Position numbers and translations under genes: made by a program. The notes below the pieces were generated by a model that saw only the letters and a list, made by a program, of their open reading frames with translations, was not told where the DNA came from and did no database searches. Below, piece after piece: positions 2,746-27,989 of a DNA stretch of 32,000 nucleotides (position 1 is the stretch's first letter; each line of letters begins with the position of its first letter). Source of the DNA: Kiritimatiella glycovorans (lineage in GTDB: Bacteria; Verrucomicrobiota; Kiritimatiellia; Kiritimatiellales; Kiritimatiellaceae); assembly GCF_001017655.1 (NCBI RefSeq), contig NZ_CP010904.1, forward strand, positions 1,320,001 through 1,352,000. Direction: 5' to 3'.

Positions 2746-2817
2746 GCGCGTATTATACACGAATACGGCATACGAATACAAGCCTGCGACACGACGGGAG
2801 TCTAAGTTCGGTCCATA
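2746..2817. promoter_or_regulatory. Divergent promoter/operator region between the PAS-AraC gene and the URO-D-like operon
   Basis: 72-bp AT-richer divergent intergenic region. Direct repeat ACGAATAC at 2759-2766 and 2772-2779 (13-bp spacing), next to the TATTATAC -10-like box at 2751-2758. Confidence 0.35.
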
Positions 2818-4245: not shown

Positions 4246-4264
4246 CCGCAGGAGGGCCTACCCT

Positions 4265-6771: not shown

Positions 6772-6799
6772 TTCTCTTAGCGTAGAAAAGGAGTCATTC

Positions 6800-9488: not shown

Positions 9489-11118
9489 GCGAAAGGGAAG
9501 AGAAGCTGGAAACCGAGTCAGAGGGAGGAGGAGAATCAGAATCAGAGTCAGAATCAGAGTGAGAGTCAGAGTGAGAAGCAGGGTCGGAGTGGGAGCCGGG
9601 GGGAGTGATGATTTTCTGCCAGAGATCGTTACGGTAGAGAAACTGCAGGATCACGCCGGCGCGGAGGCCGACGAGTTCGGCGGTATGCGTGTCGTCGAAT
9701 TGCGGGCCGAGCGTCTCCGCGGTGTCCATATCGAGTATGACTACGGGGGCGGCGGGATCGGCGGGCGGCTGTTTCCAGTAGCCCGTGCGTTCAAACCCGC
9801 GCAGGTACCAGGGGATCGGCCAGTATTCGCCGGAGATCACTTTGACGGTCATGGCGCGTCCTTCGGGATGGTGCCTTGCTGCGGTCTGCACGTGTTCGAT
9901 GCCGCGCAGCAGGTCGGCGCTGGTGTGCGAGTAGACGTAGGGATTGCGCGGCGCCGAGGCATAACGGGTACGGACGAGCGCGGACTGACGGGCGAGATGC
10001 AGGGTTGCCCCGAGGAGGAGCACGGCCGCGAGCGCGGTCCATACCCGGCGTCCGCGCAGATCCCGGAAGAGCGCCACGACCCCCCACCCCGCCACCACGG
10101 CGGCGATATGGATAAAGGAGAGCATCAGCCAGGGAATCTTGTACGGAATGGCGGAGTAGACGATCAGCAGGATCAGGGCGTACAGTCCGAAGAAGCGCAC
10201 CAGCGCACTCCCGCGCATCCCGCCTTCCCGCCGCGGCCGGCATGCGCGGATCGTGCCGAAGACGGCCATTCCCAGGATCAGCCCCTCGCTCCAGAAGACC
10301 CCGCCCCGGCTGTGGCCGCCGAACAGGACGAGGTAATAGTACCAGGGCTTCTCGTGGCCCTCCCCGCCCGCGCGGGGAAGGTAGTGCGTCACGGACCGCA
10401 CGGCCGCAGCCAGACCTTCCGGGTTGGTGAAGAAAGACGTGTAGAAGACGACGGTCACCGCCAGGGCGCTGCCGAGCGCCAGGGCGCCATGCACCGGGTG
10501 ATCGCGCAGAGCGGCAAAGACGCGCCCGCGGTAGAGGATGAGTCCCGCTGCGGCGATGGAGAAATACGAGAGCACCGCCGTTTCCTTGGTCGCGATCATC
10601 CACCCGGCCGCCACCCCGGCCAGCACGGCGGCGGAAACGGTGCGTGTTCGCGCCCAGCGGCCCAGCGCGATCAGGAGCAGAAACGTGCCGAACACCAGCA
10701 GCGTCTCGTGGATGTAGTAGCGGTTGTAATACAGAAACGCCGGCGAGACCGCCGCGAGCAGCGCGCCCGTCCAGGCCGCGGGAAAAGACAGCGGCCGTAT
10801 CAGCGCCGCGGAGAGCAGCAGGCAGAGCAGTCCGAACACGACGGGCACGACGCGCAACGGGATCTCATCGAGCGAGGCCAGCCCCTCCGCGCCGGCGAGC
10901 CGGGCGGCGGGCAGTGTCGCGTACATCAGCGTCGGACCGTGATACTCGTAGGGATCGTAGGTGTAGTCACCCTCCTCGAGCAGATCCCCGAAGATCACCG
11001 CCTGCACTGCCTCGTCCGTGTGCATCGGGCGGTGATCCAGGCCAGCCAGCCGCGCCCAGCCCGCCCCCGCGAGCAGGAGGAGAAACAGGAGCGCGGCGAA
11101 CCCGCAGCGGTTGATCAC
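9478..11118 (-). CDS. polytopic GT-C-fold membrane protein (TIGR03663/Agl23-like, PMT/ArnT-related) with His/Ser/Asp-repeat C-terminal tail
   Basis: 546 aa with many TM segments. N-terminal motif LDHRPMHTDEAVQA...YTYDPYEYHGPTLMY is typical of the TIGR03663/GT39-like family as I remember it. The GTG start overlaps the upstream stop (GTGA). The tail is SHSDPASHSDSHSDSDSDSDSPPPSDS. Confidence 0.7.
   Translation of the reverse strand: MINRCGFAALLFLLLLAGAGWARLAGLDHRPMHTDEAVQAVIFGDLLEEGDYTYDPYEYHGPTLMYATLPAARLAGAEGLASLDEIPLRVVPVVFGLLCLLLSAALIRPLSFPAAWTGALLAAVSPAFLYYNRYYIHETLLVFGTFLLLIALGRWARTRTVSAAVLAGVAAGWMIATKETAVLSYFSIAAAGLILYRGRVFAALRDHPVHGALALGSALAVTVVFYTSFFTNPEGLAAAVRSVTHYLPRAGGEGHEKPWYYYLVLFGGHSRGGVFWSEGLILGMAVFGTIRACRPRREGGMRGSALVRFFGLYALILLIVYSAIPYKIPWLMLSFIHIAAVVAGWGVVALFRDLRGRRVWTALAAVLLLGATLHLARQSALVRTRYASAPRNPYVYSHTSADLLRGIEHVQTAARHHPEGRAMTVKVISGEYWPIPWYLRGFERTGYWKQPPADPAAPVVILDMDTAETLGPQFDDTHTAELVGLRAGVILQFLYRNDLWQKIITPPGSHSDPASHSDSHSDSDSDSDSPPPSDSVSSFSSLSHVH
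9533..9592. repeat. Imperfect hexanucleotide tandem repeat (about 10 units of GArTCA/GAGTGA) encoding the (H)SD repeat tail
   Basis: Read directly: gaatca gaatca gagtca gaatca gagtga gagtca gagtga gaagca gggtcg gagtgg. On the minus strand this translates to HSDSHSDSDSDSDS. Confidence 0.8.
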
Positions 11119-11828
11119 GGAATGCCGTATACCGAGACCTCCACATAGTGGTTCATTTCGTCCGAGGTATTGCCGTTCGAATACAGCCGCACGTAACGGC
11201 CCTCGACGCCCATCGGGTCGATCATGCGCCCCTCGTACGTTTCGATGTAGGCGGGGTCGGTTCCGGCACCCATTCCGGCCGAATTGTCGTGGTCGTTATT
11301 AAAGATCGTCTGCACGCCTTCGATGAAATCCGGGTCGTCCGATACCTGCACGATCACATCGTGGTACGCGCGGGCCTGGCGGTGAAAGTGCCAGAGCAGG
11401 ATCGCGTGCAGTTCCGCCTTCTGCTCGAGATCGATCTGCACCCACTGCACCCCCGGGCCCAGCTCGACGAAATGGCCCGCGTCGCCGCTCTTGTCGTCGT
11501 CGGTCACCATCTCCAGTTCACCGATTACCGGAAACGGATCGCTGGCCGACACGGGCTTGTTTTTCGAAAGCAGTTCCGTACCTTCGGGCACCATGATTTC
11601 TCCGCGCGGTTCGTCGCGGTTTTCGAGGTTGGGAAGTTTGACCGGCACCGGCGTGCCGGCAAAGAGCGGCTTGGGCAGTTCCGGTTTCAGCGGAACCATC
11701 TCCGGAGCGGTGACTTCACCTGCCGGCGTTTCGCCCCCGCTCTGGCCGGTATTTCCGCCCGCCATTGCGTACGCGCCCGCCGCGCCGCACATGACCGCCA
11801 CAAGTACAAATCGTGTCTTCTTTTTCAT
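11115..11828 (-). CDS. secreted (possibly lipoprotein) discoidin / F5-8 type C domain protein
   Basis: Signal peptide MKKKTRFVLVAVMCGAAGAYA, then a Pro-rich linker. Discoidin-like core: ...VTDDDKSGDAGHFVELGPGVQWVQIDLEQKAELHAILLWHF...YHDVIVQVSDDPDF...GRYVRLYSNGNTS...YVEVSVYG. GGGAGGAA RBS. Confidence 0.75.
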   Translation of the reverse strand: MKKKTRFVLVAVMCGAAGAYAMAGGNTGQSGGETPAGEVTAPEMVPLKPELPKPLFAGTPVPVKLPNLENRDEPRGEIMVPEGTELLSKNKPVSASDPFPVIGELEMVTDDDKSGDAGHFVELGPGVQWVQIDLEQKAELHAILLWHFHRQARAYHDVIVQVSDDPDFIEGVQTIFNNDHDNSAGMGAGTDPAYIETYEGRMIDPMGVEGRYVRLYSNGNTSDEMNHYVEVSVYGIP

Positions 11829-11853
11829 AGGATTCCTCCCGGCTCACGCCCGG

Positions 11854-13020
11854 TTAGTCGTTTTCCAGTTTTACCCACACGGCCCCGTCCTGTGACGATT
11901 TCACGACCGCCTCAATGAATCGCATGCCGCGAACCCCTTCGTCGACGGACGGGAAATCCGACCCGTCCGCGGAAGGGTTCCGGCCTTCCGCGTGGGCGCG
12001 GATCGCTTCCGCAAAGTTGACGTAGTGATTGGCGAAGGACTCGATGAACCCTTCCGGATGGCCGAACGGGATTCGCGTACACTTCGCGGCCGCCTCGCAT
12101 TTTTCGCCGACGTAGTCGTTGCCGCGCCGCCATATCTCCTCGGGCGCATTCAACTTGCGCACGTGCAGTGCATTCGGGTTTTCCTGGTGCCATTCCAGGC
12201 TCGCGTTTTCGCCGTGCACCCGAATCGCCAGGTTGTTCTCTTCTCCGATCGAGATCTGGCTGGCGTGGAGCAGCCCCTTCGCCCCGTTATCGAAGCGCAG
12301 CAGCATCTGGCCGTCGTCGTCGAGCGGCCGTCCCTCCACGAACGTCGAAAGATCCGCACACAATTCAGTGATCCCGATCCCGGCCACATATTCGGCGAGG
12401 TTCGCCGCATGGGTGCCGATATCGCCGATACAACCCGCAGCTCCGCTCTGTTTCGGATCCGTCCGCCAGCTCGCCTGCTGCACGCCTTCGCGCTCGATCG
12501 CCCGGGCCAGCCACCCCTGCGGGTACTGAACCACAATCTTGCGGATCTCCCCGAGATCACCCTGCCGAACCATTTCGCGGGCCAGTTTCACCATCGGATA
12601 GCCCGTATACACATGCATCAGGCCGAACACGAGTCCGCTCTCCCGCACCAGGTCGCGCAGTTCCACCGCCTCCGCCGACGTCATCGTCATCGGCTTCTCG
12701 CACATCACGTGAAAACCCGCTTCAAGCGCCGCCTTCGCGATCGGAAAATGCCAGTTGTTCGGCGTCGTCACGGAAACGAAGGATATGCGCTCGTCGGCGG
12801 AGCGCGCCGATTCGGAGGCCAGCATCGCCTTATAATCGTCATACACCCGCTCAGGATCCAGATCCAGCTCTCGCCCCATCGCCTGACTCTTTTCCGGGTC
12901 GATATCGAAAGCCCCGGCCGTAACTTCAATGTGGCCGTCCATGCGTGCCGCCTTCCGGTGCACTTCCCCGATGAATGCTCCGGGGCCGCCGCCGACCATC
13001 CCCATCTTCAAACGCTTCAT
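11854..13020 (-). CDS. Gfo/Idh/MocA-family oxidoreductase (cytoplasmic, no signal peptide)
   Basis: Start chosen at ATG 13020 (MKRLKMGMVGGGPGAFIGEVHR...) with an AAGGAG RBS; the track start at 13062 adds 14 unlikely residues. Family motifs include VSVTTPNNWHFPIAKAALEAGFHVMCEKPMT. Confidence 0.9.
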   Translation of the reverse strand: MKRLKMGMVGGGPGAFIGEVHRKAARMDGHIEVTAGAFDIDPEKSQAMGRELDLDPERVYDDYKAMLASESARSADERISFVSVTTPNNWHFPIAKAALEAGFHVMCEKPMTMTSAEAVELRDLVRESGLVFGLMHVYTGYPMVKLAREMVRQGDLGEIRKIVVQYPQGWLARAIEREGVQQASWRTDPKQSGAAGCIGDIGTHAANLAEYVAGIGITELCADLSTFVEGRPLDDDGQMLLRFDNGAKGLLHASQISIGEENNLAIRVHGENASLEWHQENPNALHVRKLNAPEEIWRRGNDYVGEKCEAAAKCTRIPFGHPEGFIESFANHYVNFAEAIRAHAEGRNPSADGSDFPSVDEGVRGMRFIEAVVKSSQDGAVWVKLEND

Positions 13021-13153
13021 GCCCGCTCTCCTTTTCAATGCCCGGTTCCGGTTTCCGACCACCGGCTGCTCCTATCGTCGCCTGTATACTGGTTTCGCCT
13101 GAGTCCTGCTTGTACAAATCTGCTTTATATTTGGACTTTTTCGTCATGCCTGC

Positions 13154-13891
13154 TCAATGAATCCGACGATACTCCTGCGGGGTGACCCCCTTCATCCGCT
13201 TGAACTGGCGGGTGAGGTGGCTGTGATCGTAGAACCCGGAGTCCTGCGCGATCCGGGAGATCGTATCGGCGGTTTCGAGCAGCGCGCGGCAGGCGTGGTT
13301 GACGCGGACCTGGATCAGGTAGTGGCGCGGCGTCATCTGGAACAGCCTGCGGAACTTCCGTTCGAACTGGCTGACGGACATGCCCGCCATTCTCGCCAGC
13401 ACCGGGACGTCGAGGGGCTCGGCGAAGTGCCGGTTGATGTATTCCACCACGGTGGTAAACACGGAATACGGCTCTAGGTTCGATTTGGATTCGTTGAGGT
13501 CGCGCGCGATGCCCGCGAGGCCGATCACTCCACCCTCGCGGTCGAACAGCGGAACTTTTGAGGTCACGAACAGGTTGTTGCGGCCGTCCATTTCCGGGGC
13601 GGGTTCGATGCGGTTCACGATGCGGTTGCCGGTCCGCATCACATAGGTGTCGTCCTTGATGTACCGCTCCGCCCGGTCCGGCGGAAAGAAGTCGTGGTCC
13701 GTCCGGCCGAGCAGCTCCTCCAGGCGGCTCAGTCCGCATTTTTCGAAAAACAACCGGTTCGCCATCACGAAGCGGCCCTCGCGGTTTTTGGCGAAGAAAA
13801 AAACGTCCGGAAGAAATTCGAACAGGGATCCCACCTGCGGATCGCTCGCCAGCCGCACCATAAAGGCCTGTTGATATTCAAGGGCGTCCAT
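13154..13891 (-). CDS. PAS-domain / AraC-family transcriptional regulator, 245 aa (paralog of 2002..2745)
   Basis: Same architecture as 2002..2745 and roughly 45% identity to it by eye (FFFAKNREGRFVMANR..., GRTDHDFF, SKVPLFDREGGVIGLAGIARD, GMSVSQFERKFRRLF..., GFYDHSHLTRQFKR). A 24-nt stretch at 13214-13237 is 23/24 identical to 2071-2094. Confidence 0.85.
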   Translation of the reverse strand: MDALEYQQAFMVRLASDPQVGSLFEFLPDVFFFAKNREGRFVMANRLFFEKCGLSRLEELLGRTDHDFFPPDRAERYIKDDTYVMRTGNRIVNRIEPAPEMDGRNNLFVTSKVPLFDREGGVIGLAGIARDLNESKSNLEPYSVFTTVVEYINRHFAEPLDVPVLARMAGMSVSQFERKFRRLFQMTPRHYLIQVRVNHACRALLETADTISRIAQDSGFYDHSHLTRQFKRMKGVTPQEYRRIH

Positions 13892-14001
13892 GCCGAAAAA
13901 TTACAAGAAATTGGCGAACGATTACAAGCACAGTATTGATGGAAGAGGCATACTTTTGAAATATTGCTGGCGTTTGGAATCCTTAATCCAGGGAGCGCAT
14001 C
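13892..14001. promoter_or_regulatory. Divergent promoter/operator region between PAS-AraC paralog 2 and the xylose-isomerase-like operon
   Basis: 110-bp AT-richer divergent intergenic region. Direct repeat ATTACAAG at 13900-13907 and 13921-13928, spaced 21 bp (two helical turns), the spacing typical of AraC-family direct-repeat half-sites. Confidence 0.4.
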
Positions 14002-14994
14002 ATGAGCCGACCGGTAACACTGTTCACGGGCCAATGGGCCGACATGGGGATCGATGAACTCGCGCGGAAGGCCGCGAAGTGGGGCTACGACGGGCTTGAG
14101 CTGGCCTGCTGGGGGGATCACTGCGATCCCGACCGCGGGGCGCAGGATGCCGCGTACGCGAGGGGGCGCCACGAGCTTCTGGCGAAGCATGGGCTGAAGT
14201 GTTTTGCGATCAGCAATCATCTCGCCGGTCAGCTTGTATGTGACCCGAACGACGATGCACGCACGGACGCCTTCGCGCCGGAGGACTGCGCGGGCGACGC
14301 GGAAAAGAAGCGCGAATGGGCCATCGAAACGACCAAGAACGCGGCGCGCACCGCAAAGAACATGGGCCTGTCCGTGGTCAACGGTTTCACCGGATCGCCG
14401 GTCTGGCACATGCTGTATTCGTTTCCGCCGCTGCCGCCGTCGGCGATCGACGACGGATTCGGGCGCTTCGCGGAACTCTGGAACCCCATCCTGGACGTCT
14501 TTGACGAGTGCGGCGTTAAGTTCGCGCTGGAAGTGCATCCCACGGAGATCGCCTTCGACCTCTACACCGCGAAGCGCGCCCTCGAGGCCCTGAATCACCG
14601 GGAAGCTTTCGGATTCAATTTCGATCCGAGCCATCTCGAGTGGCAGGGCATGGACCCGGTCAAGTTCATCGAAGCCTTTCCCGATCGGATCTATCACGTG
14701 CACATGAAGGACTGCGCGACGACGCTCGACGGCGTATCCGGCATCCTGGCCTCGCACCTCGATTTCGGCGACCCGCGGCGCGGATGGGATTTCCGCAGCG
14801 TGGGGCGCGGCGATGTCGACTTCGAGGCGATCATCCGGGCGCTGAACGCCATCGGCTACGACGGTCCGCTCTCGGTTGAATGGGAGGATGCCGCCATGGA
14901 TCGTGAACACGGTGCCGAGGAGGCCTGTCAGTATGTAAAGAACATCGACTTCCCGAAATCCGGCCGGGCCTTCGATGCCGCCTTCGGGGACTGA
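14002..14994 (+). CDS. xylose-isomerase-like TIM-barrel protein (sugar phosphate isomerase/epimerase family)
   Basis: 330 aa. Motifs: YDGLELACWGDH, NHLAGQLVCD, GFTGSPVW, ALEVHPTEIAFD, FNFDPSHL, HVHMKD, SVEWED. GGGAG RBS. Confidence 0.85.
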   Translation: MSRPVTLFTGQWADMGIDELARKAAKWGYDGLELACWGDHCDPDRGAQDAAYARGRHELLAKHGLKCFAISNHLAGQLVCDPNDDARTDAFAPEDCAGDAEKKREWAIETTKNAARTAKNMGLSVVNGFTGSPVWHMLYSFPPLPPSAIDDGFGRFAELWNPILDVFDECGVKFALEVHPTEIAFDLYTAKRALEALNHREAFGFNFDPSHLEWQGMDPVKFIEAFPDRIYHVHMKDCATTLDGVSGILASHLDFGDPRRGWDFRSVGRGDVDFEAIIRALNAIGYDGPLSVEWEDAAMDREHGAEEACQYVKNIDFPKSGRAFDAAFGD

Positions 14995-15028
14995 CGATGC
15001 GGGACGCGGGAGGTGAAGGAGGTGAGCG

Positions 15029-16327
15029 ATGAAAACGGGTAGTGTGAACCGCCGCGGGTTTGTTCGCGCCGGGGCGGCCGTGATCGGCGCACCGGCGATC
15101 ATCCCCGCTTACGTCCTGGGTGCTGAGGCCCCGAGTAACGACATCGTGATCGCCGCGATCGGCCAGGGCGGGATGGGCCGCGGAAATACGGCGAACCTGA
15201 TGCGTCGGAGAGACTGCCGCGTCGTGGCGGTCTGCGACGTCGATCCGCGCCGCCGGGCGGCGGGCAAGACGATGGTCGACAACTATTACGGCAACAAGGA
15301 CTGCCTGGCGACGGAAGACTACCTCGAGATCGTGGCCCGCGAGGATATCGATGCGGTCATGATCGCCCTGCCCGATCACTGGCACGCGCGGGCGGCGATT
15401 GATGTGCTTCGCTCGGGCAAGGATGTCTACGGCGAGAAGCCGGTCGCGCGCACCATTCGCGAGGGGCGCGCCATCTGTGACGCCGTCGAGCGGTATGGAC
15501 GAATCTGGCAGACGGGAAGCTGGCAGCGATCCCAGCGCAACTTCCTGATCGGGGCCGAAATGGTACACAACGGTGTTCTGGGTGAAATCCAGCGGGTGGA
15601 GGTCGGTATCCCCGGCGGCGTCCACGACAGTCCGCTCGTGCCGGTCACGCCCCCGCCGGAAGGATTCAACTACGAGCGATGGCTCGGTCCCGCCCCGTGG
15701 CGTCCCCACCGCGCGCTTGGCCGCGAGGGACGAACCATGCACTGGAACTGGCGCTGGATTCGCGATTACGGCGCGGGTTATCTCTCGGACTGGTGTCCGC
15801 ACCACCTCGACATCGCCCACTGGGGCATGGGTTACGACCGGACCGGGCCGGTGAAAATCACCGAGGCCCGGGGGATCTTCCCCGAAAGGGGGCTCTTCAA
15901 CACACCGGGGCAGTTCTACTTCAAGGCCCATTACGCCGATGGTCACATCATTGAAGTCGGCTGCCCGCCGGGCATGAATATGGGCACAAAATGGATCGGC
16001 GAACGGGGATCGATCCGTGTCAACCGCGGGGGACTGCTGGAAATCGATCCGCCTGAACTTCGTCACGAATACGGCCGGGGCAATTGGAAGGCACTGACCC
16101 GTTCCGTCAATCACCACGAGAACTTTGTCCGCTGTATCCGGTCGCGCCGAACGACCGTCGCCCCCGCCGAAGTCGGCCATCGCACGGCGTCGGTGGCCCT
16201 GCTTTGTGAAATCTCACTGCTGCTCGGCCGCGACGTGCACTGGGATCCTGAGCGCGAGAGTATTCTTAACGATCCGACGGCCAACGCCATGCTGGGCCGC
16301 ACGTATCGGGAACCCTGGAGCCTGTGA
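15029..16327 (+). CDS. Gfo/Idh/MocA-family oxidoreductase with Tat signal
   Basis: Tat motif NRRGFVRAGAAVIGAPA. Rossmann IVIAAIGQGGMGR. YGEKPVA motif. AGGAGG RBS. Confidence 0.9.
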   Translation: MKTGSVNRRGFVRAGAAVIGAPAIIPAYVLGAEAPSNDIVIAAIGQGGMGRGNTANLMRRRDCRVVAVCDVDPRRRAAGKTMVDNYYGNKDCLATEDYLEIVAREDIDAVMIALPDHWHARAAIDVLRSGKDVYGEKPVARTIREGRAICDAVERYGRIWQTGSWQRSQRNFLIGAEMVHNGVLGEIQRVEVGIPGGVHDSPLVPVTPPPEGFNYERWLGPAPWRPHRALGREGRTMHWNWRWIRDYGAGYLSDWCPHHLDIAHWGMGYDRTGPVKITEARGIFPERGLFNTPGQFYFKAHYADGHIIEVGCPPGMNMGTKWIGERGSIRVNRGGLLEIDPPELRHEYGRGNWKALTRSVNHHENFVRCIRSRRTTVAPAEVGHRTASVALLCEISLLLGRDVHWDPERESILNDPTANAMLGRTYREPWSL

Positions 16328-19275
16328 TGCGCATGAATCCCCGTGTCTTCTTTTTCACAGCCCTGTTCGTGGCCGTCCTGACGAGCCCCCCCGTCCCTTC
16401 CGTGGCCGCCCCGGCCCCCGACGTCCTGCCGGAGGTTCCCGCGGACCACGTCGCGAAGATCCGCGCCGCCCTCCCCTCCCCGGCCCCGGCCCCCGAAACC
16501 CCGCGCCGTATCCTGCTCTTTTGGCGTTGCGAGGGCTTCTATCACTCCGCCATTCCCTGGGCGAACCGGGCGATTCAGGAAATGGGGGCCATGAACAAGG
16601 CGTGGACCTGCGCGGTGAGTAAAGACATGGCGGTGTTCACGCCGGAACGTCTCGCCGAATACGATGTCGTCGTGTTCAACAGCACGACCCGTCTGCAGCC
16701 CACGGACGAACAGCTCCAAGCCCTGCTCGATTTCGTGCGCGGCGGAGGCGGAATCGTCGGCATTCATGCCGCCACGGACAATTTCTATTCCGATCCCGAA
16801 GCGGCGCAGATGATGGGCGGGCTGTTCAATAAACATCCCTGGCACTTCAAAGGGATGTGGTCATTCGTCCTCGACGATCCAGGCCACCGGCTCAACCAGG
16901 CCTTTGAAGAACTGACGTTTGAAGCGAGCGATGAAATCTACCAGTTCAAGGATCCCTACAGCCGGGAACGAGTCCGCGTGCTGACCCGGGTCGATCTCAG
17001 CCAGGCGTCCAATCTCGAGGTCCAGGGCCGCGAACGCGATGATCTCGATCACGCCATCACCTGGGTGCGCTCCGAGGGCTCAGGCCGCGTCTTTTACTTC
17101 GGATTCGGTCACAACAACGCCATCTACTGGAACAGGCCCCTGATGCGTCATCTTTATGACGGTCTTCGTTTTGCCGCCGGCGACCTCGAGGTCGATACGA
17201 CGCCGAGCGCGCAACGCGACGATCTGGACCGCATCGCCGGCTGGGCCTATGAACAGTCCCGGATGCCCTTCGAGCGCTTGCGAATCCGCTGGAATGAAGC
17301 CGACGATGCGGGACGCGCGAAACTCGAAGACCAGTTCACCGAGGCCCTGCGCAACACGCGATCCACCCTCGACGGCCGGCGCGAGATCTGTCGGCTGCTC
17401 GGCCACTCGGGTTCGGAGCGGGCCTGTGCCGCCCTCGCGGAAGCGCTGCGCCACCCGGATCTGCGCGACGAAGCCTGTATCGCACTCGGCGTTCATCCGA
17501 GTGCCGAGGCGGATGCGGCCCTCGTCGATTTTCTGGCCGATTCCGGGGACGCTCATGCGATCAGTGTGATCAACGCCGCGGGACGGCGACGGGTGAACGC
17601 GGCCGTACCGCAGCTCGCCCGGAGACTCGCGTCTGAAGACGAAGCCCTTGTCAAGGCATCAAGCTACGCGCTGGCTACCATCGCCAGCCCGCCGGCGATC
17701 GAGACGCTCATGGAGGCCTACACCGCCGAGGAAAATTCCATCCTTGAGCCGGCTTTGCTGGATGCGGCCTATCGCCTCGCAGAAGCGGGATCTGCGGAGA
17801 ACGCCCGCCGTCTGTTCGAGGGGCTGACAGGCCGGGGCTCCCCGCAGAGCCGCGCGGCCGCACTCCCCGGACTGGTTTCCCTCCGCGGCCGGGAAATGAT
17901 CCCCGACCTTTTCAAGGCCCTGCGAGAAGGTTCCGACCCCGTGGCGGAAACGGCCGCCCGGATCTTGCCCGAACTCCTCACCCCGTCCACGGTGCGCCCG
18001 CTGGCCCGTACCCTGGATTCGCTGCCGGACGACCGCGTCCCGATGGCGCTGGAGGTGCTTGCGCGGGTGGCGCCTGACGAAACCCTGCCGATCCTCCGTT
18101 CGATGCTGGACACAGACGAGCCGTCCTCGGCCTCTATGGCCCTGGCAATCATCGGCCGGTTCGGCGAACGTGAGGACCTCGCCCGCTGTTTTGACTGGGC
18201 GGCCCACGAGGATGAAGGGGCCTCCGGCCCGGCCCGCGAAGTCCTGAGTTATGATCATCTTCCGGGGACGGATAAGTTTCTGCTGAAGAAACTCGATCCC
18301 GACACCGCACCCGAAGATACCGCCCTGGCGATCGAACTGCTCTCCAAACGCGAACACCCCGAGCTGCTGGACCGTCTGCGCGACCCGGCCTGGTATGATG
18401 ACCACATCACCGCTTCCGCGGCGTTGAACGCTCTCAAGGAACACGCGACCCGGGATGATCTCGGTCCGGTTATTCAGCTTTTCTTTGCGGTGAACAATCG
18501 CACGGCGCCCAAACTGGCGGGCGTTATTCGCAAAATTGCCCAGGAATACAAGGATCAGAAAGCCGTGCTCGACGGATACCGGCGCGCCCTGGACCATGCA
18601 CGGGAAATGCATTCCACGGCCCGCATGCGGATTTTGATGCAGTTGGTCGACTATCTCGATATCCCCGCTCACCTCAAAGGCGAGGCATGGATGGCGCTCA
18701 TCCGGGAGTGCGAGGACAAGGCCCTTCGCCTCGAGGCGATCCAACTGCTGGCCCGCTCGGCTCCTTCCGCGAGTGCCCTCGATTTTATCTCCGGCCTCCA
18801 CGGTGACGCCGACTTGACCGCCGTCATTGAACGGGCCCACCGCTCCATTGAGAAGGCCCTCTCCGGACCGCCTGAACTCACGGCATCCCATGGGGGCGGC
18901 ACCCTTAAGGCCCTCTTCACCCCCGAAACCGAGGACCGATGGACCAGCCACCAGTCGCGGGAACCGGGCATGTGGCTGCTCATCGATTTCCGGGTGCCCC
19001 GCCGGGTGGGATCGATCACCCTGGATGCGTCCGGCTCGAAAAATGATTTTCCGAATCAATATGAGGTGTATACCGACGACGAGCAGGAGGCTTCGGCCGC
19101 CCCGCGGCTGAGGGGTGAGGGATCCACGGTGACAAAAATCGATCTCGGCGGCGTGGAAACGCAGTTCGTCAAGATTGTCAACCAGTCCGAGGCCCACCAG
19201 TGGTGGTCCATTCACGACCTGCGCATCGACGGCGAATCGCTCTCCTCCATGAAGAACCACGATGCCGGGAAGTAG
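16324..19275 (+). CDS. secreted ThuA-like domain / HEAT-repeat / discoidin (F5-8 type C) fusion protein, 983 aa
   Basis: Signal peptide (VFFFTALFVAVLTSPPVPSVAA). ThuA-like class-I amidotransferase-like fold (RILLFWRCEGFYHS...YDVVVFNSTT...GGGGIVGIHAATD...FNKHPWH...ITWVRSEGSGRVFYFGFGH). Central HEAT-like repeats. C-terminal discoidin (MWLLIDFRVPRRVGSITLDASGS...QYEVYTDD...FVKIVNQSEAHQWWSIHDLRIDG). The start is either GTG 16324 or ATG 16327, and both overlap the upstream stop. Confidence 0.85.
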   Translation: MMRMNPRVFFFTALFVAVLTSPPVPSVAAPAPDVLPEVPADHVAKIRAALPSPAPAPETPRRILLFWRCEGFYHSAIPWANRAIQEMGAMNKAWTCAVSKDMAVFTPERLAEYDVVVFNSTTRLQPTDEQLQALLDFVRGGGGIVGIHAATDNFYSDPEAAQMMGGLFNKHPWHFKGMWSFVLDDPGHRLNQAFEELTFEASDEIYQFKDPYSRERVRVLTRVDLSQASNLEVQGRERDDLDHAITWVRSEGSGRVFYFGFGHNNAIYWNRPLMRHLYDGLRFAAGDLEVDTTPSAQRDDLDRIAGWAYEQSRMPFERLRIRWNEADDAGRAKLEDQFTEALRNTRSTLDGRREICRLLGHSGSERACAALAEALRHPDLRDEACIALGVHPSAEADAALVDFLADSGDAHAISVINAAGRRRVNAAVPQLARRLASEDEALVKASSYALATIASPPAIETLMEAYTAEENSILEPALLDAAYRLAEAGSAENARRLFEGLTGRGSPQSRAAALPGLVSLRGREMIPDLFKALREGSDPVAETAARILPELLTPSTVRPLARTLDSLPDDRVPMALEVLARVAPDETLPILRSMLDTDEPSSASMALAIIGRFGEREDLARCFDWAAHEDEGASGPAREVLSYDHLPGTDKFLLKKLDPDTAPEDTALAIELLSKREHPELLDRLRDPAWYDDHITASAALNALKEHATRDDLGPVIQLFFAVNNRTAPKLAGVIRKIAQEYKDQKAVLDGYRRALDHAREMHSTARMRILMQLVDYLDIPAHLKGEAWMALIRECEDKALRLEAIQLLARSAPSASALDFISGLHGDADLTAVIERAHRSIEKALSGPPELTASHGGGTLKALFTPETEDRWTSHQSREPGMWLLIDFRVPRRVGSITLDASGSKNDFPNQYEVYTDDEQEASAAPRLRGEGSTVTKIDLGGVETQFVKIVNQSEAHQWWSIHDLRIDGESLSSMKNHDAGK

Positions 19276-19304
19276 TATCCATCATTAACCGAAAGGGTGT
19301 GCCG

Positions 19305-19823
19305 ATGAAGAAAAGATTTATGAGCGACTGGACCGGGAAAACCTGGGCCTTTCTCACGCTTCGCATCTGGCTGGCGATGCGCGCCATCGTCACCGGCATC
19401 GAGAAGTTTACCGGCACAAAGATTGAAGAACAGCCGCTGCTCGACGAATTCGGCGAACCCGACATCAGCGGCGCTATGGTCGAGGTCAAGACCAAGGTCT
19501 ACGGATTCGAGCACTACCACGCGGTCGATCCGTCCCTGGCCGAAGCCCTGGGCAAGGAGCCCCTGCTGCCGGACTTCTTTCTCACCCCCTACTACGCCGT
19601 GCTCGGTTACGCGCTGATCGGACTGGGCCTGATGCTGCTCGTCGGACTGTTCACGCGCACGTCGCTCTTTCTGATGGGCCTTCTGTACACCTCGCTCACC
19701 TTCGGCCTCATCCTGATCCAGCAGGACGGCGGCGTGGCCTGGCTGGGCATTCACATCCTCATGATCGCCCTGGCCCTCTCCTGGGCGGACGACAACCGAC
19801 TGGCCCTGACGCAAAAGGGATAA
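19305..19823 (+). CDS. small 4-TM membrane protein, DoxX-like (tentative)
   Basis: Start chosen at ATG 19305 (MKKRFMSDW...); the track start at 19200 overlaps the previous gene. One N-terminal TM (FLTLRIWLAMRAIVTGIEKF, DoxX-like), a loop of about 60 aa, then three C-terminal TMs. Confidence 0.45.
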   Translation: MKKRFMSDWTGKTWAFLTLRIWLAMRAIVTGIEKFTGTKIEEQPLLDEFGEPDISGAMVEVKTKVYGFEHYHAVDPSLAEALGKEPLLPDFFLTPYYAVLGYALIGLGLMLLVGLFTRTSLFLMGLLYTSLTFGLILIQQDGGVAWLGIHILMIALALSWADDNRLALTQKG

Positions 19824-19848
19824 ACCCGCAACCATACGGAGCGAAACC

Positions 19849-21183
19849 ATGACGAATGAAACCACGAGACGCGAATTCATGCAGAAGAGCGGTACGGCCG
19901 CGGCCGGACTCTGGCTGGCGGCGTCGCACGCCGCGCGGGTTCGGGCGGCGGAGACCTCCAGCGCCGGCCAGATCAATGTCGGCCTCGTCGGGGTCGGCGA
20001 ACAGGGCCGCGTGCTGCTCAACGCGGCCAAGGACCTCCCCGGACTGAACTTCACGGCGGTCTGCGATATCTGGGAGTACAGTCAAAAATACGGGCGCAAC
20101 TACCTGCGCAAATTCGGACACGATCCCGCCGTCTACACCGACTACCGCGAAATGCTCGAGAAACAGACCGACCTCGACGCCGTGATCGTCGCCACGCCCG
20201 ACTTCGTGCATCACGAAATTACGATCGCCGCGCTGGAGGCCGGCAAAGACGTCTACTGCGAAAAGGCGATGTCCAACGACATCGAGAAGGCGCGCGCCAT
20301 GGTCCGGGCGATGAAATCGACCGGGCGCCTGCTGCAGATCGGCCATCAGCGCCGCAGCAACCCGCGCTACATCCACACCTACCACAATCTTCTGAAGAAG
20401 GCGCGGATTACCGGCACGATGACCAACGCCAACGCGCAGTGGAATCGCGCCAAAGTCGAACCGCGCGGGTGGCCGGATAAGTACACGATCCCGCAGGATG
20501 TGCTTACAAAATTCGGATATGCCGACATGCAGCAGTTCCGCAACTGGCGCTGGTACAGGAAATACGGCGGCGGACCCATCTTTGATCTCGGCGCCCACCA
20601 GATCGACATCTTCAACTGGTTCTTCGGCGGAGCCCCCAGGACCGTGACCGCCGACGGGGGCAACGACTTCTACAAGGACTGGGAGTGGTACGACAACGTC
20701 ATGGCCATCTTCGAGTACGATACGCCCGACGGGACGGCCCGCGCCTTCTACCAGACCCTCAACACCACCAGCGCCGGGGGCGGCTACTGGGAGATGTTCA
20801 TGGGCACCGAGGGCACCGTCAAAATCGCCGAGAATCCGAAGTGGACGCGGGTCTACCGCGAAGCGCACGCGCCGGACTGGGAGAAGTGGTTCAAGCTGCA
20901 CTATCTCGAAAAGATGGACATGCCCGGACCGCAGCAGGCCGAGGCCGGCAAGGTCGATGTGCGCGAGACCGCGCCGCTCGTGGCCTTCAAAATCCCGGTC
21001 ACGCTGAGTAAGCCGATCCACCAGCCGCACCTGGAAAACTTCTTCGCGGCCATGCGCGGCGAAGAGGAACTGAACTGCCCGGCCGACCACGCCTTCGAGA
21101 GCGAAGTCGCGGTGTTCAAGGTCAACCCGGCCATCGAAGCCGGACGCAAGATGACCATCACGGACGAGGATCTGGCGGTCTAG
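19849..21183 (+). CDS. Gfo/Idh/MocA-family oxidoreductase with Tat signal
   Basis: Tat motif TRREFMQKSGTAAAGLWLAAS. Rossmann INVGLVGVGEQGR. YCEKAMS motif. Confidence 0.9.
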   Translation: MTNETTRREFMQKSGTAAAGLWLAASHAARVRAAETSSAGQINVGLVGVGEQGRVLLNAAKDLPGLNFTAVCDIWEYSQKYGRNYLRKFGHDPAVYTDYREMLEKQTDLDAVIVATPDFVHHEITIAALEAGKDVYCEKAMSNDIEKARAMVRAMKSTGRLLQIGHQRRSNPRYIHTYHNLLKKARITGTMTNANAQWNRAKVEPRGWPDKYTIPQDVLTKFGYADMQQFRNWRWYRKYGGGPIFDLGAHQIDIFNWFFGGAPRTVTADGGNDFYKDWEWYDNVMAIFEYDTPDGTARAFYQTLNTTSAGGGYWEMFMGTEGTVKIAENPKWTRVYREAHAPDWEKWFKLHYLEKMDMPGPQQAEAGKVDVRETAPLVAFKIPVTLSKPIHQPHLENFFAAMRGEEELNCPADHAFESEVAVFKVNPAIEAGRKMTITDEDLAV

Positions 21184-21216: not shown

Positions 21217-23835
21217 ATGGCATCCACGAAGCTGGAATTCACTACCGGCATATCAGGACTGGATCGAATGCTCCACGGGCTGCGGCCCGGGGACAATGTC
21301 GTCCTGCAGGTCGGTCGCATGGACGAGTATTCGCCGCTGGTGGAACCGTTCTACCGCGCGAACCTCGCCGAGGGTAAAAAGCTCATCTACTTCCGCTTCG
21401 CGCGTCACCGGCCGCTGATCCCCGACGACGCCGGCGCCGAGGTGCACCACCTCCATCCCGAGGCGGGGTTCGAGCGGTTCATCACCGAGACGCTCGATAT
21501 CATCGAGCGGGCGGGGCCCGGCGCCTGTTACGTCTTCGACTGCCTCTCGGATCTGGCGGTCGACTGGTACAGCGACCGGATGCTGGGCAACTTCTTCATG
21601 CTCGCCTGCCCCTACCTCTACCGGCTGGACACGATCGCCTACTTCGCGCTGCTGCGTAACAATCACTCCTCGCTGGCCATCGACGCGATCCGCCGGACCG
21701 CGCAGGTCGTGATGACGGTCTACCGCAACCACCGCGAGCTGTACGTGCACCCCCAGAAGGTCGACCAGCGCTACTCGCCGACCATGTACGTCCTGAACCA
21801 CTGGAAGGGCGAGGCGTTCCAGCCGGTGACCGACAGCGCCGTGACCGCGGACATCCTCAGCGACACGACGCAGCCGTGGCTGGAATTCGCCAACCGCCGC
21901 CCCGAAGTGTGGACCCGCACGGTGATGCGTGCGCAGGAGGTCTGCGAGCAGCTGACCTCGCAGGACGCGGAGCCCGGGGACGACGAGGAACTCTACCTGC
22001 GGCTGTTGCGTATGGCGGTCTCGCGCGATGAACGGTTCATCGATCTCTGCCGGCGCTATTTCTCGCTCAGGGATCTGCTGGCGATCGTGCAGCGCATGAT
22101 CGGCACGGGGCTGATCGGCGGCAAATCGCTGGGCATGCTCCTGGCCCGCGCCATGCTCTGCGCGAAAAACCCGGCCTGGCAGGCGAAGCTCGAAGTCCAC
22201 GATTCCTTCTTCGTGGGCTCGGATGTCTTCTACACCTATCTCGTGCAGAACAAATGCTGGTGGCTGCGGCGGCGCAAGGCCGACAGCACCATGGAAGAGG
22301 TTCTCGACAATGCGGGCGCCGCCCGGGAGAAAATCCTCGCCGGCGCGTTTCCCGAGGACATCCGCAACCAGTTCATGGAGATGCTGAACTACTTCGGACA
22401 GTCGCCGATCATCGTCCGCTCCAGCAGCCTGCTCGAGGACAACTACGGCAATTCCTTCTCGGGCAAGTACGATAGCGTGTTCTGCACGAATCAGGGTACG
22501 CCGGAGGAGCGGTTCGAGGAGCTGCTCTCCGCCATCCGGACCGTCTATGCCAGCACCATGAACCGGGAGACGCTGACGTATCGCTCCGACCGCGGGCTGC
22601 TGGACCGGGACGAGCAGATGGCGCTGCTGATTCAGCGCGTTTCGGGGAACGCCCACGAAGGCCTCTTCTTCCCCCATATGGCCGGCACGGCGTTTTCGTT
22701 CAATCCCTACGTCTGGAACCGGGACATCGATCCCGAGACCGGCATCGTGCGGCTGGTCGCCGGTCTGGGGACGCGGGCGGTCGACCGCACCGAGGACGAC
22801 TACACCCGGCTCGTGGCTCTGAACGCCCCGATGAAGCAGCCGTTCGACGACGAGGACGCGCGCCGTTTCTCTCAACGGCGCATGGACGTACTCGACCTGG
22901 AGAACAATCAGCTCGACAGTTTTCCGGTCGAAGACATCATGCGCCGGCTGCCCGAACGCCTCCTGCCGCATCTCGCGGTCCGCGACAGCCGGGTCGAGGA
23001 GTTCGCGCGTCAGCGCGGTGAAATGCGCACCGCCTGGCGGCTGAGCTTCGATCGCACCCTGAGCGAAGATACGTTCGTGAAAGACCTGCGCGACATGCTG
23101 CACATACTGCACGAGGCCTACCGCTACCCGGTCGATGTCGAATTCACGGCCAACATCACCGGCGACCGCAAACTGCTTTACAACCTGGTCCAGTGCCGTC
23201 CGTTCCAGGTCCAGGTCAGCGCCCAGGGGCACCTCGTCCAGTGGCCGGAGTCCCTCACCGCCGAGGACACGCTGCTCGAGAGCAGCGGCCCCGTGATCGG
23301 CCCCGGCCTGGCGGGCGAGATCGACCGCATTCTCTACGTGGTCCCGGAAGCCTACTCGAAGCTGTCGACCCAGGACCGCTACGGCGTGGCCCGGCTGATC
23401 GGCCGGATCACCCATCTCGAGACGGAGGAACGCCGCAAGACCCTGATGCTGATCGGACCCGGCCGCTGGGGTACGCGATCGCCGTCGCTGGGGGTGCCGG
23501 TCACCTTCGCCGAGATCAACCGCACGTCCGTGTTGTGCGAACTGGCGATGATGCACGAGGGCCTGGTGCCGGACGTCTCACTGGGCACGCATTTCTTCAA
23601 CGACATGGTCGAGGCCGGACTGATCTGCCTGGCCGTGTTCCCGGGCCGGGAGGGGAACAGCTTCTCGCCGGAATTCCTGAAGTCCTCCCCCAATCGACTG
23701 GTCGAGGTGCTTCCGGACGCCCTGCGCTGGCAGGAGGTGCTGCGGGTGGTCGACGGGGATCAGTTCGGCAAACATCAGCGGCTGTATTTCCGCGCCGACC
23801 CGATGAAACAGCGCGCGGTCTGTTACAAGGCCTGA
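21217..23835 (+). CDS. fusion protein: degenerate KaiC/RecA-like N-domain (no Walker A) + PPS/PPDK-type ATP-binding (PPDK_N) domain + uncharacterised C-terminal domain, 872 aa
   Basis: The N-terminus FTTGISGLDRMLHGLRPGDNVVLQVG resembles the KaiC-family opening TGIPGLDxxLGGGLPxGxxxLIxG, but GRMDEYS replaces GxxGxGKT. The central region carries PPDK_N motifs: LIGGKSLGMLLA, PIIVRSSSLLEDNYGNSFSGKYDS, MALLIQRV, GTAFSFNP, VAGLGTRAVD, YPVDVEFT...LVQCRP. No GGxTSHAA phosphohistidine signature was seen by eye. Confidence 0.7.
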   Translation: MASTKLEFTTGISGLDRMLHGLRPGDNVVLQVGRMDEYSPLVEPFYRANLAEGKKLIYFRFARHRPLIPDDAGAEVHHLHPEAGFERFITETLDIIERAGPGACYVFDCLSDLAVDWYSDRMLGNFFMLACPYLYRLDTIAYFALLRNNHSSLAIDAIRRTAQVVMTVYRNHRELYVHPQKVDQRYSPTMYVLNHWKGEAFQPVTDSAVTADILSDTTQPWLEFANRRPEVWTRTVMRAQEVCEQLTSQDAEPGDDEELYLRLLRMAVSRDERFIDLCRRYFSLRDLLAIVQRMIGTGLIGGKSLGMLLARAMLCAKNPAWQAKLEVHDSFFVGSDVFYTYLVQNKCWWLRRRKADSTMEEVLDNAGAAREKILAGAFPEDIRNQFMEMLNYFGQSPIIVRSSSLLEDNYGNSFSGKYDSVFCTNQGTPEERFEELLSAIRTVYASTMNRETLTYRSDRGLLDRDEQMALLIQRVSGNAHEGLFFPHMAGTAFSFNPYVWNRDIDPETGIVRLVAGLGTRAVDRTEDDYTRLVALNAPMKQPFDDEDARRFSQRRMDVLDLENNQLDSFPVEDIMRRLPERLLPHLAVRDSRVEEFARQRGEMRTAWRLSFDRTLSEDTFVKDLRDMLHILHEAYRYPVDVEFTANITGDRKLLYNLVQCRPFQVQVSAQGHLVQWPESLTAEDTLLESSGPVIGPGLAGEIDRILYVVPEAYSKLSTQDRYGVARLIGRITHLETEERRKTLMLIGPGRWGTRSPSLGVPVTFAEINRTSVLCELAMMHEGLVPDVSLGTHFFNDMVEAGLICLAVFPGREGNSFSPEFLKSSPNRLVEVLPDALRWQEVLRVVDGDQFGKHQRLYFRADPMKQRAVCYKA

Positions 23836-23849
23836 AGTAGGAGCGACGC

Positions 23850-25106
23850 TTGAGCCTGTTGATTCACAATGTGCGGCTGGACGGGAACCCGACCGATATA
23901 CGCATTGACCGGAACCGGTTTACCCGGATCGCACCCGGGCAGGATGAACCTGCGGACACCGTGATCGACGGCGCGGGCTTCGCGATTCTTCCGACCTTTC
24001 ACAACGGCCACACGCATGCGGCGATGACGCTGCTGCGCGGGTATGCGGACGACATGGATCTCGAGACCTGGCTGAACCGGCACATCTGGCCGCTGGAATC
24101 GAAGTTGCGCGAAGAGGACGTATACAACGGGGCGCGGCTCGCATGCGCGGAAATGATCCGTTCCGGAACCACGTTTTTCAATGACATGTACTGGCATCCG
24201 CACGGCACGGCGCGCGCGGCGGACGCCATGGGCCTGCGCGCCGATATCTCGGCGGTGTTCATCGATTTTCACGATCCCGACAAGGCGGATGAGGAGCGAC
24301 GAAACAACGACGCGCTGCTGCGCGCTGCGGACCGGTACCCGGACCGGATCCGCATCACGCTCGGACCTCACGCCGTGTACACGGTATCCGAAGCTTCATT
24401 GCGCTGGGCGGCCGAAGTCTCGGAGTCGCGGGCATGCGACATCCACATCCACCTCGCGGAGACGGAAGAAGAGTGCCGGAACGCGCAGGAGTCCTTCGGC
24501 TGCTCGCCGGTCGCCCATCTCGACCGCAACGGCGTGCTGGGACCGAGGACGGTCGCGGCGCATGTGAACTGGGTGGATGAAAAAGAGATGGATCTGCTCG
24601 CCGAGCGCGGGGTACGCGTGGCCCACAATCCCGCCTCCAACATGAAACTGGCTTCGGGGTCATTCCCCTACGCCGACCTGGCGGGGCGCGGCATAAAGGT
24701 CTGCCTCGGGACGGACGGTGCCTCGTCCAACAACAATCTGGACATGGGCGAAACGATGAAACTGGCCGCGCTGCACGCCAAGCTGCGCTACCGCGACCCG
24801 ACGGTGCTCGGTGCCGAAGAGGTGTTCGAGCTGGCCACCGGCGGCGCTGCGAACCTCTTCGCCCGCGAGTCGGGACGGATCCGCGAAGGCATGCTCGCCG
24901 ACGCGATGCTCGTCAACCTGGGCCACCCCCGCCTCAATCCCGGGTACAACCTTATCTCAGACATGGTCTACGCGGCCGACAGCTCCTGCATCGATACCGT
25001 CATCTGCGACGGCCGCATCCTGATGCGCGGGGGGGTCATCGAGGGAGAAGAGGAAATCGTCGCCAAGGCGCGCGAGAGCCGGGACTACCTTCTGGGCCGG
25101 CCATGA
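23850..25106 (+). CDS. mtaD: amidohydrolase of the MtaD / 5'-methylthioadenosine-S-adenosylhomocysteine deaminase family
   Basis: TTG start with an AGGAG RBS. Motifs: FHNGHTHAAMTLLRGYADDMDLETWL...IWPLE, EMIRSGTTFFNDMY, HIHLAETEEE, AAHVNWV, VAHNPASNMKLASG, LGTDGASSNNNLDM. Confidence 0.75.
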   Translation: MSLLIHNVRLDGNPTDIRIDRNRFTRIAPGQDEPADTVIDGAGFAILPTFHNGHTHAAMTLLRGYADDMDLETWLNRHIWPLESKLREEDVYNGARLACAEMIRSGTTFFNDMYWHPHGTARAADAMGLRADISAVFIDFHDPDKADEERRNNDALLRAADRYPDRIRITLGPHAVYTVSEASLRWAAEVSESRACDIHIHLAETEEECRNAQESFGCSPVAHLDRNGVLGPRTVAAHVNWVDEKEMDLLAERGVRVAHNPASNMKLASGSFPYADLAGRGIKVCLGTDGASSNNNLDMGETMKLAALHAKLRYRDPTVLGAEEVFELATGGAANLFARESGRIREGMLADAMLVNLGHPRLNPGYNLISDMVYAADSSCIDTVICDGRILMRGGVIEGEEEIVAKARESRDYLLGRP

Positions 25107-27914: not shown

Positions 27915-27989
27915 TGGAGGCGCGGACCGGATTCGAACCGGTGATACATGGATTTGCAATCCACCGCCTTACCACTTGGCTACCGCGCC
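27915..27989 (-). tRNA. tRNA-Cys (anticodon GCA)
   Basis: Folded by hand as a cloverleaf: acceptor GGCGCGG/CCGCGCC; 3-bp D stem with an A13:A22 mismatch; anticodon stem GTGGA/TCCAT with loop TTGCAAA; T arm ACCGG-TTCGAAT-CCGGT; discriminator U73 (a CysRS identity element); encoded CCA. Confidence 0.92.

Follow-up and report, generated by a model that had tools for sequence, protein, structure and literature searches.

A stretch of 32,000 nucleotides (nt) from Kiritimatiella glycovorans (contig NZ_CP010904.1, positions 1,320,001 to 1,352,000 of the forward strand; here called the window, with a G+C content of ~63%) contains a string of five co-directional open reading frames (ORFs) on its plus strand between positions 14002 and 21183, which we designate genes A to E. 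Gene A (14002-14994) encodes a xylose-isomerase-like TIM barrel, B (15029-16327) a Gfo/Idh/MocA oxidoreductase with a signal of the twin-arginine translocation (Tat) type, C (16324-19275) a secreted protein that combines ThuA, HEAT and discoidin domains, D (19305-19823) a DoxX-like membrane protein with four helices, and E (19849-21183) a further Gfo/Idh/MocA protein with a Tat-type signal. The gaps between them are 34, -4, 29 and 25 nt, the negative value being a 4-nt overlap of the end of B with the start of C, and the ATG start codon of D is at 19305, not at 19302. An initial annotation of this DNA had placed the same five genes at these positions, and the domains that it named are upheld by Pfam for A, B, C and E; D is DoxX-like, with sub-threshold hits only. 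The regulator that it described beside the string, a PAS-AraC protein (Pfam PAS_4 and HTH_18) encoded divergently at 13154-13891 on the minus strand, is likewise present. Oxidative, hydrolase-independent cleavage of glycosides has recently been worked out in Bacteroides, in Agrobacterium and in degraders of levoglucosan and C-glycosides, and the initial annotation had read the five genes as one candidate periplasmic system of this kind. Comparison with related loci reveals instead that parts of three conserved modules meet in the string and that partners encoded at 8667-13020 on the opposite strand had been overlooked.

Related loci were collected by scanning an alignment of D against one genome per GTDB species, which yielded 80 loci (L001-L080), and the window proteins were mapped onto them by tblastn; the counts of genes before and after D cover only loci with enough flank. 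Domains were called by Pfam and NCBIfam profile searches, and structural assignments come from PDB sequence searches, AlphaFold models and fold searches. The gene that follows D is an ortholog of E in 74 of 76 loci, making E the constant partner of D, and further downstream in gene order come homologs of three genes that the window carries on its minus strand: R3 (11115-11828), in 68 of 71 loci, u7 (9478-11118), in 51 of 65, and u6 (8667-9488), in 39 of 53. Because E and the R3-like, u7-like and u6-like genes trail D across the loci, D and E are the front of a five-gene module with the conserved order DoxX-like protein, Tat-exported Gfo, CBM32-like discoidin protein, Agl23-like membrane protein and cytoplasmic ApbE protein, a module that in the window is split onto two strands. 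D is solitary in L001 and L033, the former being uninformative, with a masked run after D. The other genes of the string belong elsewhere: B and C form a Tat-Gfo and ThuA pair, and A pairs with R2 (11854-13020, minus strand), a Gfo/Idh/MocA gene that adjoins an A-like gene in all 12 loci that have A. On the minus strand R2, R3, u7 and u6 form a tight operon, with gaps of 25 (R2-R3), -4 (R3-u7) and -11 nt (u7-u6).

The run of AraC regulator, B, ThuA-HEAT gene, D and E was found again in about a dozen genomes, and together with the succession of D and E in 74 of 76 loci this recurrence argues that the arrangement is not due to chance. In about a dozen loci the order is AraC, B, an optional DUF1080 gene, C, D, E, R3 and u7, and in L040, L062 and L064 the same run continues with an optional major facilitator superfamily (MFS) gene, A and R2, so that the gene families of the window form one co-directional run. 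All ten of these families are present in the window too, where rearrangement has left them in two operons that diverge from positions 13892-14001. This AT-rich region is the shared divergent control region, and it contains two exact copies of ATTACAAG, at 13900-13907 and 13921-13928, 21 bp apart; no further exact copy is present in the 32 kb window, and the pair is a candidate operator of the AraC type. Orthologs of the PAS-AraC regulator precede B in L019, L021, L039, L040, L062 and L064. Scans for promoter-like and terminator-like sites returned numbers at or below shuffle expectation, with none above chance.

The product of A matches Pfam AP_endonuc_2 (146 bits), PDB entry 2ZDS over its full length (E = 1e-118) and, at ~35% identity between its residues 9-325 and residues 15-331 of the target, the 2-hydroxy-3-keto-glucal hydratase 8RO4 (E = 1.2e-49), with which the metal-site motifs EVHP, FDPSH, HVHMKD and VEWE align. 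The keto-glucal hydratase (E = 1e-49) is far closer than the IolE model, which scores 50 bits (E = 2e-13). A has no signal peptide, and its cytoplasmic homologs, at about 55-59% identity (58% in Deinococcus, 56% in Arthrobacter), are encoded next to Gfo genes; in these two genera the A-like genes lie in TIM/Gfo/Gfo/TIM clusters with LacI regulators and sugar transporters. R2 resembles PDB entry 3V5N (E = 2e-115), is 52% identical to the Deinococcus Gfo protein that neighbours an A-like gene, and scores 16.4 bits with BT_2159_fam. It too lacks a signal, and the twin-arginine motif occurs in none of 10 R2 orthologs. In L040 and L050 an MFS-A-R2 segment is inserted between the Agl23-like u7 and the ApbE gene u6, and the MFS carriers that accompany A-like genes in Deinococcus and in Verrucomicrobia are not orthologous to each other. 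These comparisons suggest that A is a candidate cytoplasmic 2-hydroxy-3-keto-glycal hydratase and R2 a candidate cytoplasmic 3-keto-sugar reductase. The view that the whole system is periplasmic is not supported here: A has no signal peptide, its homologs are cytoplasmic, and its usual partners are a signal-less Gfo protein and an MFS importer.

Export signals were judged by conservation of the RRxF motif and a hydrophobic stretch in orthologs, together with the Pfam TAT_signal model (cut-off 22.7 bits). The twin-arginine sequences quoted in the initial annotation, NRRGFVR in B and TRREFMQ in E, are present exactly as given, and a third exported Gfo paralog that it had mentioned was located at 5434-6771. 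The motif and the hydrophobic stretch are kept in 15 of 15 orthologs of B, 76 of 76 of E and 6 of 6 of the third paralog. On the N-terminal peptides TAT_signal gave a single match, on B and below its cut-off (17.6 bits), and nothing on E. B carries the Pfam domains GFO_IDH_MocA and GFO_IDH_MocA_C2 and shows EKP and DxxxH motifs; its identity is 36% to the third paralog and, over the full length, 28% to a BT2158-like protein, X of L005, which scores 479.5 bits across the complete BT_2158_fam model. This family of glycoside 3-dehydrogenases is the best curated one for all three exported proteins, with scores of 128.6 bits for B, 103.1 for E and 114.2 for the third paralog against a cut-off of 750, and the matches span only model positions 1 to ~257 of 487. 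BT_2159_fam scores 31.4 bits on B and 37.0 on E, short of its cut-off of 650. B would thus be a Tat-exported oxidoreductase distantly related to the BT2158 family, with both export and activity predicted.

E has both the N- and C-terminal Gfo/Idh/MocA domains and belongs to a family of more than 7000 homologs; an exact-sequence look-up of E returned no record. Its similarity to the BT2158-like X is confined to the N-terminal 260 residues. Its orthologs share GxGxxG and EK(P/A/M) motifs without variation, and E138, K139, D246 and H250, which include the Lys-Asp-His catalytic residues, are likewise invariant. The AlphaFold model of E (predicted local distance difference test, pLDDT, 86.8) has as fold neighbours, in no ranked order, RgNanOx, the glucuronide 3-dehydrogenase 8TDI, WlbA, levoglucosan dehydrogenase, GenD2/KanD2 and DgpA, a list of pyranoside C3/C4 oxidoreductases, and in addition glucose-fructose oxidoreductase (GFOR); most of the neighbours are pyranoside C3 dehydrogenases. 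The partner of B, C, scores 141.5 bits with ThuA, 81.9 with HEAT_2 and 30.5 with F5_F8_type_C; ThuA and HEAT are kept in its orthologs of L064 and L002. A free-standing pair of exported Gfo and ThuA genes also occurs in L064, where a DUF1080 gene lies between B and C.

Genes of the DUF1080 family (PF06439) are lacking from 14002-21183, and two are found in the adjacent module at 4265-8587. This module encodes a DUF1080 protein (4265-5437, plus strand; Pfam 3keto-disac_hyd, 92.5 bits), the third Tat-Gfo (5434-6771, plus strand; GFO_IDH_MocA_C2, 103.8 bits) and a HEAT-DUF1080 protein (6800-8587, plus strand; 3keto-disac_hyd, 131.4 bits), and it could supply a candidate 3-keto-glycoside lyase or hydrolase. 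A URO-D-like gene (2818-4245) heads the larger sugar-oxidation module (2014-8587), which has a PAS-AraC regulator of its own (2014-2745, minus strand), 46% identical to the copy at 13154-13891. Among the 59 loci with upstream flank, the co-directional genes directly before D encode an X-type Gfo in 25, a secreted TIM-barrel-DUF1080 fusion in 16, a C-type ThuA-HEAT protein in 11 and a free DUF1080 protein in 8, the fusion and the free DUF1080 genes having been confirmed by Pfam; overall, a gene for a BT2158-like Gfo, DUF1080, TIM-DUF1080, ThuA or B-like protein stands there in 41 loci, and 18 have none. The TIM-DUF1080 fusion (3643-5145 in L002, and in 15 other loci) usually lies between the BT2158-like and DoxX-like genes, and it would unite the functions of BT2156 and BT2157 in one chain. 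The 3-keto-glycoside link put forward in the initial annotation finds support in the homology of A to 8RO4, in BT_2158_fam as the best family, and in synteny with BT2158-like and DUF1080 genes; the substrate class itself is not fixed by these data, because models for IolG and for UDP-N-acetylglucosamine (UDP-GlcNAc) 3-dehydrogenase also give scores and none exceeds its cut-off.

D, the first protein of the five-gene module, scores 19.5 bits with DoxX (PF07681) and 16.9 with MauE. It has more than 750 homologs, almost all in Verrucomicrobiota, some of which carry precomputed PF07681 or PF07291 assignments or the JGI name thiosulfate dehydrogenase [quinone] large subunit (DoxD). After the first transmembrane helix comes a strongly conserved loop of about 55-60 residues, PLLDxFGxPDxSGAMVEV...Y..HYH, which is foreign to canonical DoxX proteins; it probably faces the periplasm and may be a docking site for the Gfo partner. 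R3 is a secreted, stand-alone discoidin/CBM32-like protein of a 220-residue type, whose homologs number more than 8000, share ~65-70% identity and bear the name discoidin domain-containing protein; a PDB sequence search with R3 gave nothing, and its placement comes from the fold search, in which the best matches of its model (pLDDT 77.8) are CBM32 modules. The polytopic, GT-C-like membrane protein u7 reaches 173.4 bits with TIGR03663, 'flippase activity-associated protein Agl23' (cut-off 126 bits), and 29 bits with Pfam PMT_2, and its HxDE and HGP motifs are conserved; in the window its C-terminus is a low-complexity, non-conserved tail (SHSDSHSDSDSDSDS...). The last gene, u6, encodes an ApbE family protein (Pfam, 81.5 bits) without a signal peptide, for which none of 46 orthologs has room. 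This ApbE-family flavin transferase is an orphan, conserved at the end of the module without a co-encoded protein that bears the canonical acceptor motif. The SGA[M/V] sequence in the D loop was considered as a flavinylation target and rejected, since the acceptor hydroxyl is absent and the loop is placed in the periplasm, with ApbE in the cytoplasm.

As judged from these sequence comparisons, we propose, with a probability of roughly 0.55, that the string and the minus-strand operon are the two halves of one regulon (8667-21183) for oxidation-initiated (3-keto) glycoside processing split across the inner membrane. The two-compartment layout follows the distribution of export signals, which B and E conserve and A and R2 lack. 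In the periplasm, Tat-exported B, presumably folded around nicotinamide adenine dinucleotide or its phosphate (NAD(P)), would oxidise a sugar ring, most likely at C3, working with the secreted ThuA-HEAT-discoidin protein C in the manner of a ThuB/ThuA pair, and the DUF1080 proteins of the 4265-8587 module would cleave the activated glycosidic bond in the same compartment. E would be a second Tat-exported pyranoside oxidoreductase, probably also oxidising at C3 and tied to D, R3, u7 and u6. A keto-sugar or keto-glycal product would then be imported, in relatives perhaps through the MFS carrier, and in the cytoplasm A would hydrate it and R2 would reduce the hydrated product. The exported enzymes would need an electron outlet because the reductive step is placed in the cytoplasm rather than in the periplasm, and in the reading that we prefer the five-gene module would be this outlet, anchored in the membrane and passing electrons from enzyme-bound NAD(P)H to the quinone pool, possibly via a flavin. 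A specific form of this idea, in which the module is an undescribed membrane complex that re-oxidises periplasmic dehydrogenases with non-dissociable NAD(P)H and hands the electrons to the quinone pool after a non-canonical flavinylation before Tat export, is conceivable and in our opinion doubtful. If true, it would mean that an oxidative glycoside cleavage that is redox-neutral elsewhere becomes respiratory in Verrucomicrobia.

Several observations weigh against the proposal of split 3-keto-glycoside processing. Within the string itself there is no transporter or kinase, as the initial annotation had already remarked, and no lyase, and the window as a whole has no MFS gene. None of the Gfo proteins attains the cut-off of any curated family (at most 129 of 750 bits), and the IolG and UDP-GlcNAc 3-dehydrogenase models also score, at 58-88 bits. 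Both Pfam matches of D are below threshold (for DoxX, 19.5 against a gathering score of 23.6 bits), and the Agl23-like u7 suggests lipid-linked sugars rather than catabolism. The electron path proposed for the module has no identified carrier, because haem motifs and conserved flavinylation motifs are lacking and the ApbE-like u6, without a signal, is cytoplasmic: the CxxCH haem motif is absent from C, D, E, R3 and u7, and the flavinylation acceptor motif [S/T]GA[S/T], as defined in PMC8238504, occurs in 0 of 76 E, 0 of 75 R3, 0 of 57 u7 and 4 of 81 D orthologs and is not conserved in orthologs of B or C.

In an alternative reading, the catabolic genes (B, C, A, R2 and the DUF1080 genes) do process 3-keto-glycosides, and the D-E-discoidin-Agl23-ApbE module, rather than being an electron outlet, has a lipid-linked sugar or a glycan of the envelope as its substrate. 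A polyprenyl-phosphate sugar would be flipped by the Agl23-like u7 and oxidised or epimerised by E at the outer face, by analogy with DprE1/DprE2. This fits the assignment of u7 to TIGR03663 above its cut-off with conserved DE and HGP motifs, the translocation of a lipid-linked oligosaccharide by purified archaeal Agl23 (PMC11182771), the sugar-binding fold of R3 and the biosynthetic enzymes WlbA, GenD2 and KanD2 among the fold neighbours of E. We nevertheless consider it unlikely, for the module is directly preceded by catabolic-type genes (BT2158-like, DUF1080, TIM-DUF1080) in 41 of 59 loci, has the MFS-A-R2 genes for import and salvage nested within it in L040 and L050 and is under PAS-AraC regulators of the sugar type, and the loci inspected showed no nucleotide-sugar or polyprenyl-phosphate glycosyltransferase genes. 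Somewhat less likely again is that the exported Gfo enzymes serve respiration, oxidising free sugars or cyclitols (inositols, for example) and delivering the electrons to the membrane, and that no glycosidic bond is cleaved. Scores of 70-88 bits for IolG models on B and E, the IolE match of A, the presence of scyllo-inositol dehydrogenase and GFOR among the fold neighbours of E, and a DoxX-like partner suggestive of a quinone link all point that way, but the inositol models stay far under their cut-offs of 290-355 bits and below BT_2158_fam, A is much nearer to the keto-glucal hydratase than to IolE, and the cluster is accompanied by genes for DUF1080 3-keto-disaccharide hydrolases and CBM32-like modules.

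The GH109 family also consists of exported enzymes with a Gfo fold and a comparable length, and it is conceivable, if improbable, that B, E or both are NAD-dependent glycosidases of this kind, acting by transient oxidation and elimination next to unrelated helper genes. B does match 2IXA (E = 6e-7) and 6T2B (E = 1e-6) with its N-terminal domain; these matches, however, are weak and limited to the Rossmann domain (residues 27-200), for E, neither the 60 listed PDB sequence matches nor the top 50 fold matches include GH109, and this reading would not account for the conserved partners, namely hydratase, reductase, DUF1080 and ThuA. That the genes are mere neighbours without shared function appears very improbable indeed. 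Gfo/Idh/MocA, TIM-barrel and ThuA genes are very abundant in Verrucomicrobia, each locus has several paralogs of each family, and the promoter and terminator scans found nothing above chance, yet orthologs at 50-60% identity keep their neighbours in dozens of species-level genomes and in the window the ten families have stayed together through a rearrangement.

Measured against known systems, the proposed two-compartment pathway is a composite. The ThuA and ThuB proteins of rhizobia (thuEFGKAB) form 3-keto-disaccharides, and the translational coupling of a ThuA-domain protein to a Gfo/Idh/MocA dehydrogenase recurs in B and C; in C, unlike its rhizobial counterpart, ThuA is fused to ~550 residues of HEAT and discoidin sequence, both partners have export signals, and the Pfam-scanned window ORFs (554-26757) include no ABC transporter corresponding to thuEFGK. 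GFOR of Zymomonas mobilis also combines a Gfo fold with a twin-arginine signal, implying export with the cofactor bound, but in sequence the resemblance does not go beyond the Rossmann domain, and GFOR works without a membrane partner, a second soluble substrate serving to recycle its NADP. D shares the first-transmembrane-helix motif and the four-helix layout of DoxD/DoxX, the large subunit of thiosulfate:quinone oxidoreductase, and differs from it in being paired with a Gfo enzyme rather than with DoxA or sulfur enzymes and in its loop insertion of ~55 residues. Escherichia coli has, by RefSeq names, a gene for a Gfo glucoside 3-dehydrogenase beside that of a TIM-barrel enzyme for the 3-keto product (YcjQ/YcjR/YcjS), a likeness that the initial annotation had mentioned. 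As a family assignment it was discarded: A has no BLASTP match to YcjR at E <= 1e-3, and the Gfo proteins match YcjS in their N-terminal part only (27% identity for B and E, 33% for R2). The E. coli system also differs in being cytoplasmic and linked to phosphorylases.

The closest parallels are in Bacteroides thetaiotaomicron and Agrobacterium tumefaciens. In the former, the DUF1080 protein BT2157 acts on 3-keto-trehalose, and Tat-exported BT2158 has been proposed to oxidise disaccharides with tightly bound NAD(P) and to require a second oxidant (Liu et al. 2021, PMC8121099). The BT2156-BT2160 locus resembles the window in having its own regulator, a TIM barrel of the xylose-isomerase-like kind, DUF1080 proteins and a Tat-exported Gfo presumed to bind NAD(P), and relatives of the window carry the 479-bit BT2158-like gene. 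The window differs from it in that its Gfo proteins reach 103-129 of 750 bits and match in the N-terminal half only, no member of the BT2159 family is present, the TIM barrel A is cytoplasmic and of another subfamily, the regulator is a PAS-AraC protein and not SusR, and ThuA-HEAT fusion, DoxX-like, CBM32-like, Agl23-like and ApbE proteins are added. In A. tumefaciens, an operon for oxidation, elimination, hydration and reduction (GlycDH/OGE/HYD/Gfo) places the gene of the hydratase AtHYD (PDB 8RO4), which acts on a keto-glucal, next to that of a Gfo protein that reduces 3-keto-glucose (Bitter et al. 2023, PMC10628242). The homology of A to AtHYD extends over the full length, A genes normally lie beside a signal-less Gfo gene, and the pathway logic would be the same. 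Among the Pfam-scanned window ORFs, however, there is no flavin adenine dinucleotide (FAD)-dependent GMC oxidoreductase or Tat small subunit, and a single xylose-isomerase-like barrel, hence no OGE-type eliminase; oxidation here would fall to the exported NAD-type Gfo enzymes.

The class of pathway is already known; its Verrucomicrobial layout and the five-gene module appear to be previously undescribed, a literature search having found no paper that combines DoxX with Gfo/Idh/MocA proteins or ApbE with DoxX. The tie of the exported dehydrogenases, in dozens of Verrucomicrobial species, to a DoxX-like membrane protein and ApbE offers a concrete candidate redox link for the question of how the trapped nicotinamide of an exported enzyme is re-oxidised, and the module gives a first genomic context to three large families, the E-type Gfo proteins, the 220-residue discoidin proteins and the DoxX-like proteins. 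The results further suggest a heavy reliance on the 3-keto route in Verrucomicrobia, a group of major importance for polysaccharide breakdown in soil, water and the gut.

Downstream of the string, F (21217-23835, plus strand), which starts 33 nt after E, encodes a protein of 872 residues with PPDK_N, a phosphoenolpyruvate/pyruvate-binding domain, as its sole domain, and G (23850-25106, plus strand) encodes an amidohydrolase of the methylthioadenosine/S-adenosylhomocysteine deaminase type. The initial annotation had suggested a co-transcription test reaching to 25106; F and G were ruled out as members, since genes corresponding to 21217-25106 are conserved with the cluster in 0 of 80 loci. A galactokinase-like gene, recognised by sequence inspection alone, lies 7 kb downstream at 28073-29245 on the minus strand, near lipB-, panC-, panB- and folK-like genes; no other candidate sugar kinase was seen in the window, and this one has no link to the cluster. 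Rfam and ARAGORN both call a tRNA-Cys(GCA) at 27915-27989 on the minus strand, and ARAGORN alone calls a tRNA-Ser at 911-991 on the plus strand, which is probably false, falling inside an ORF for a DUF481 outer-membrane protein (554-1618).

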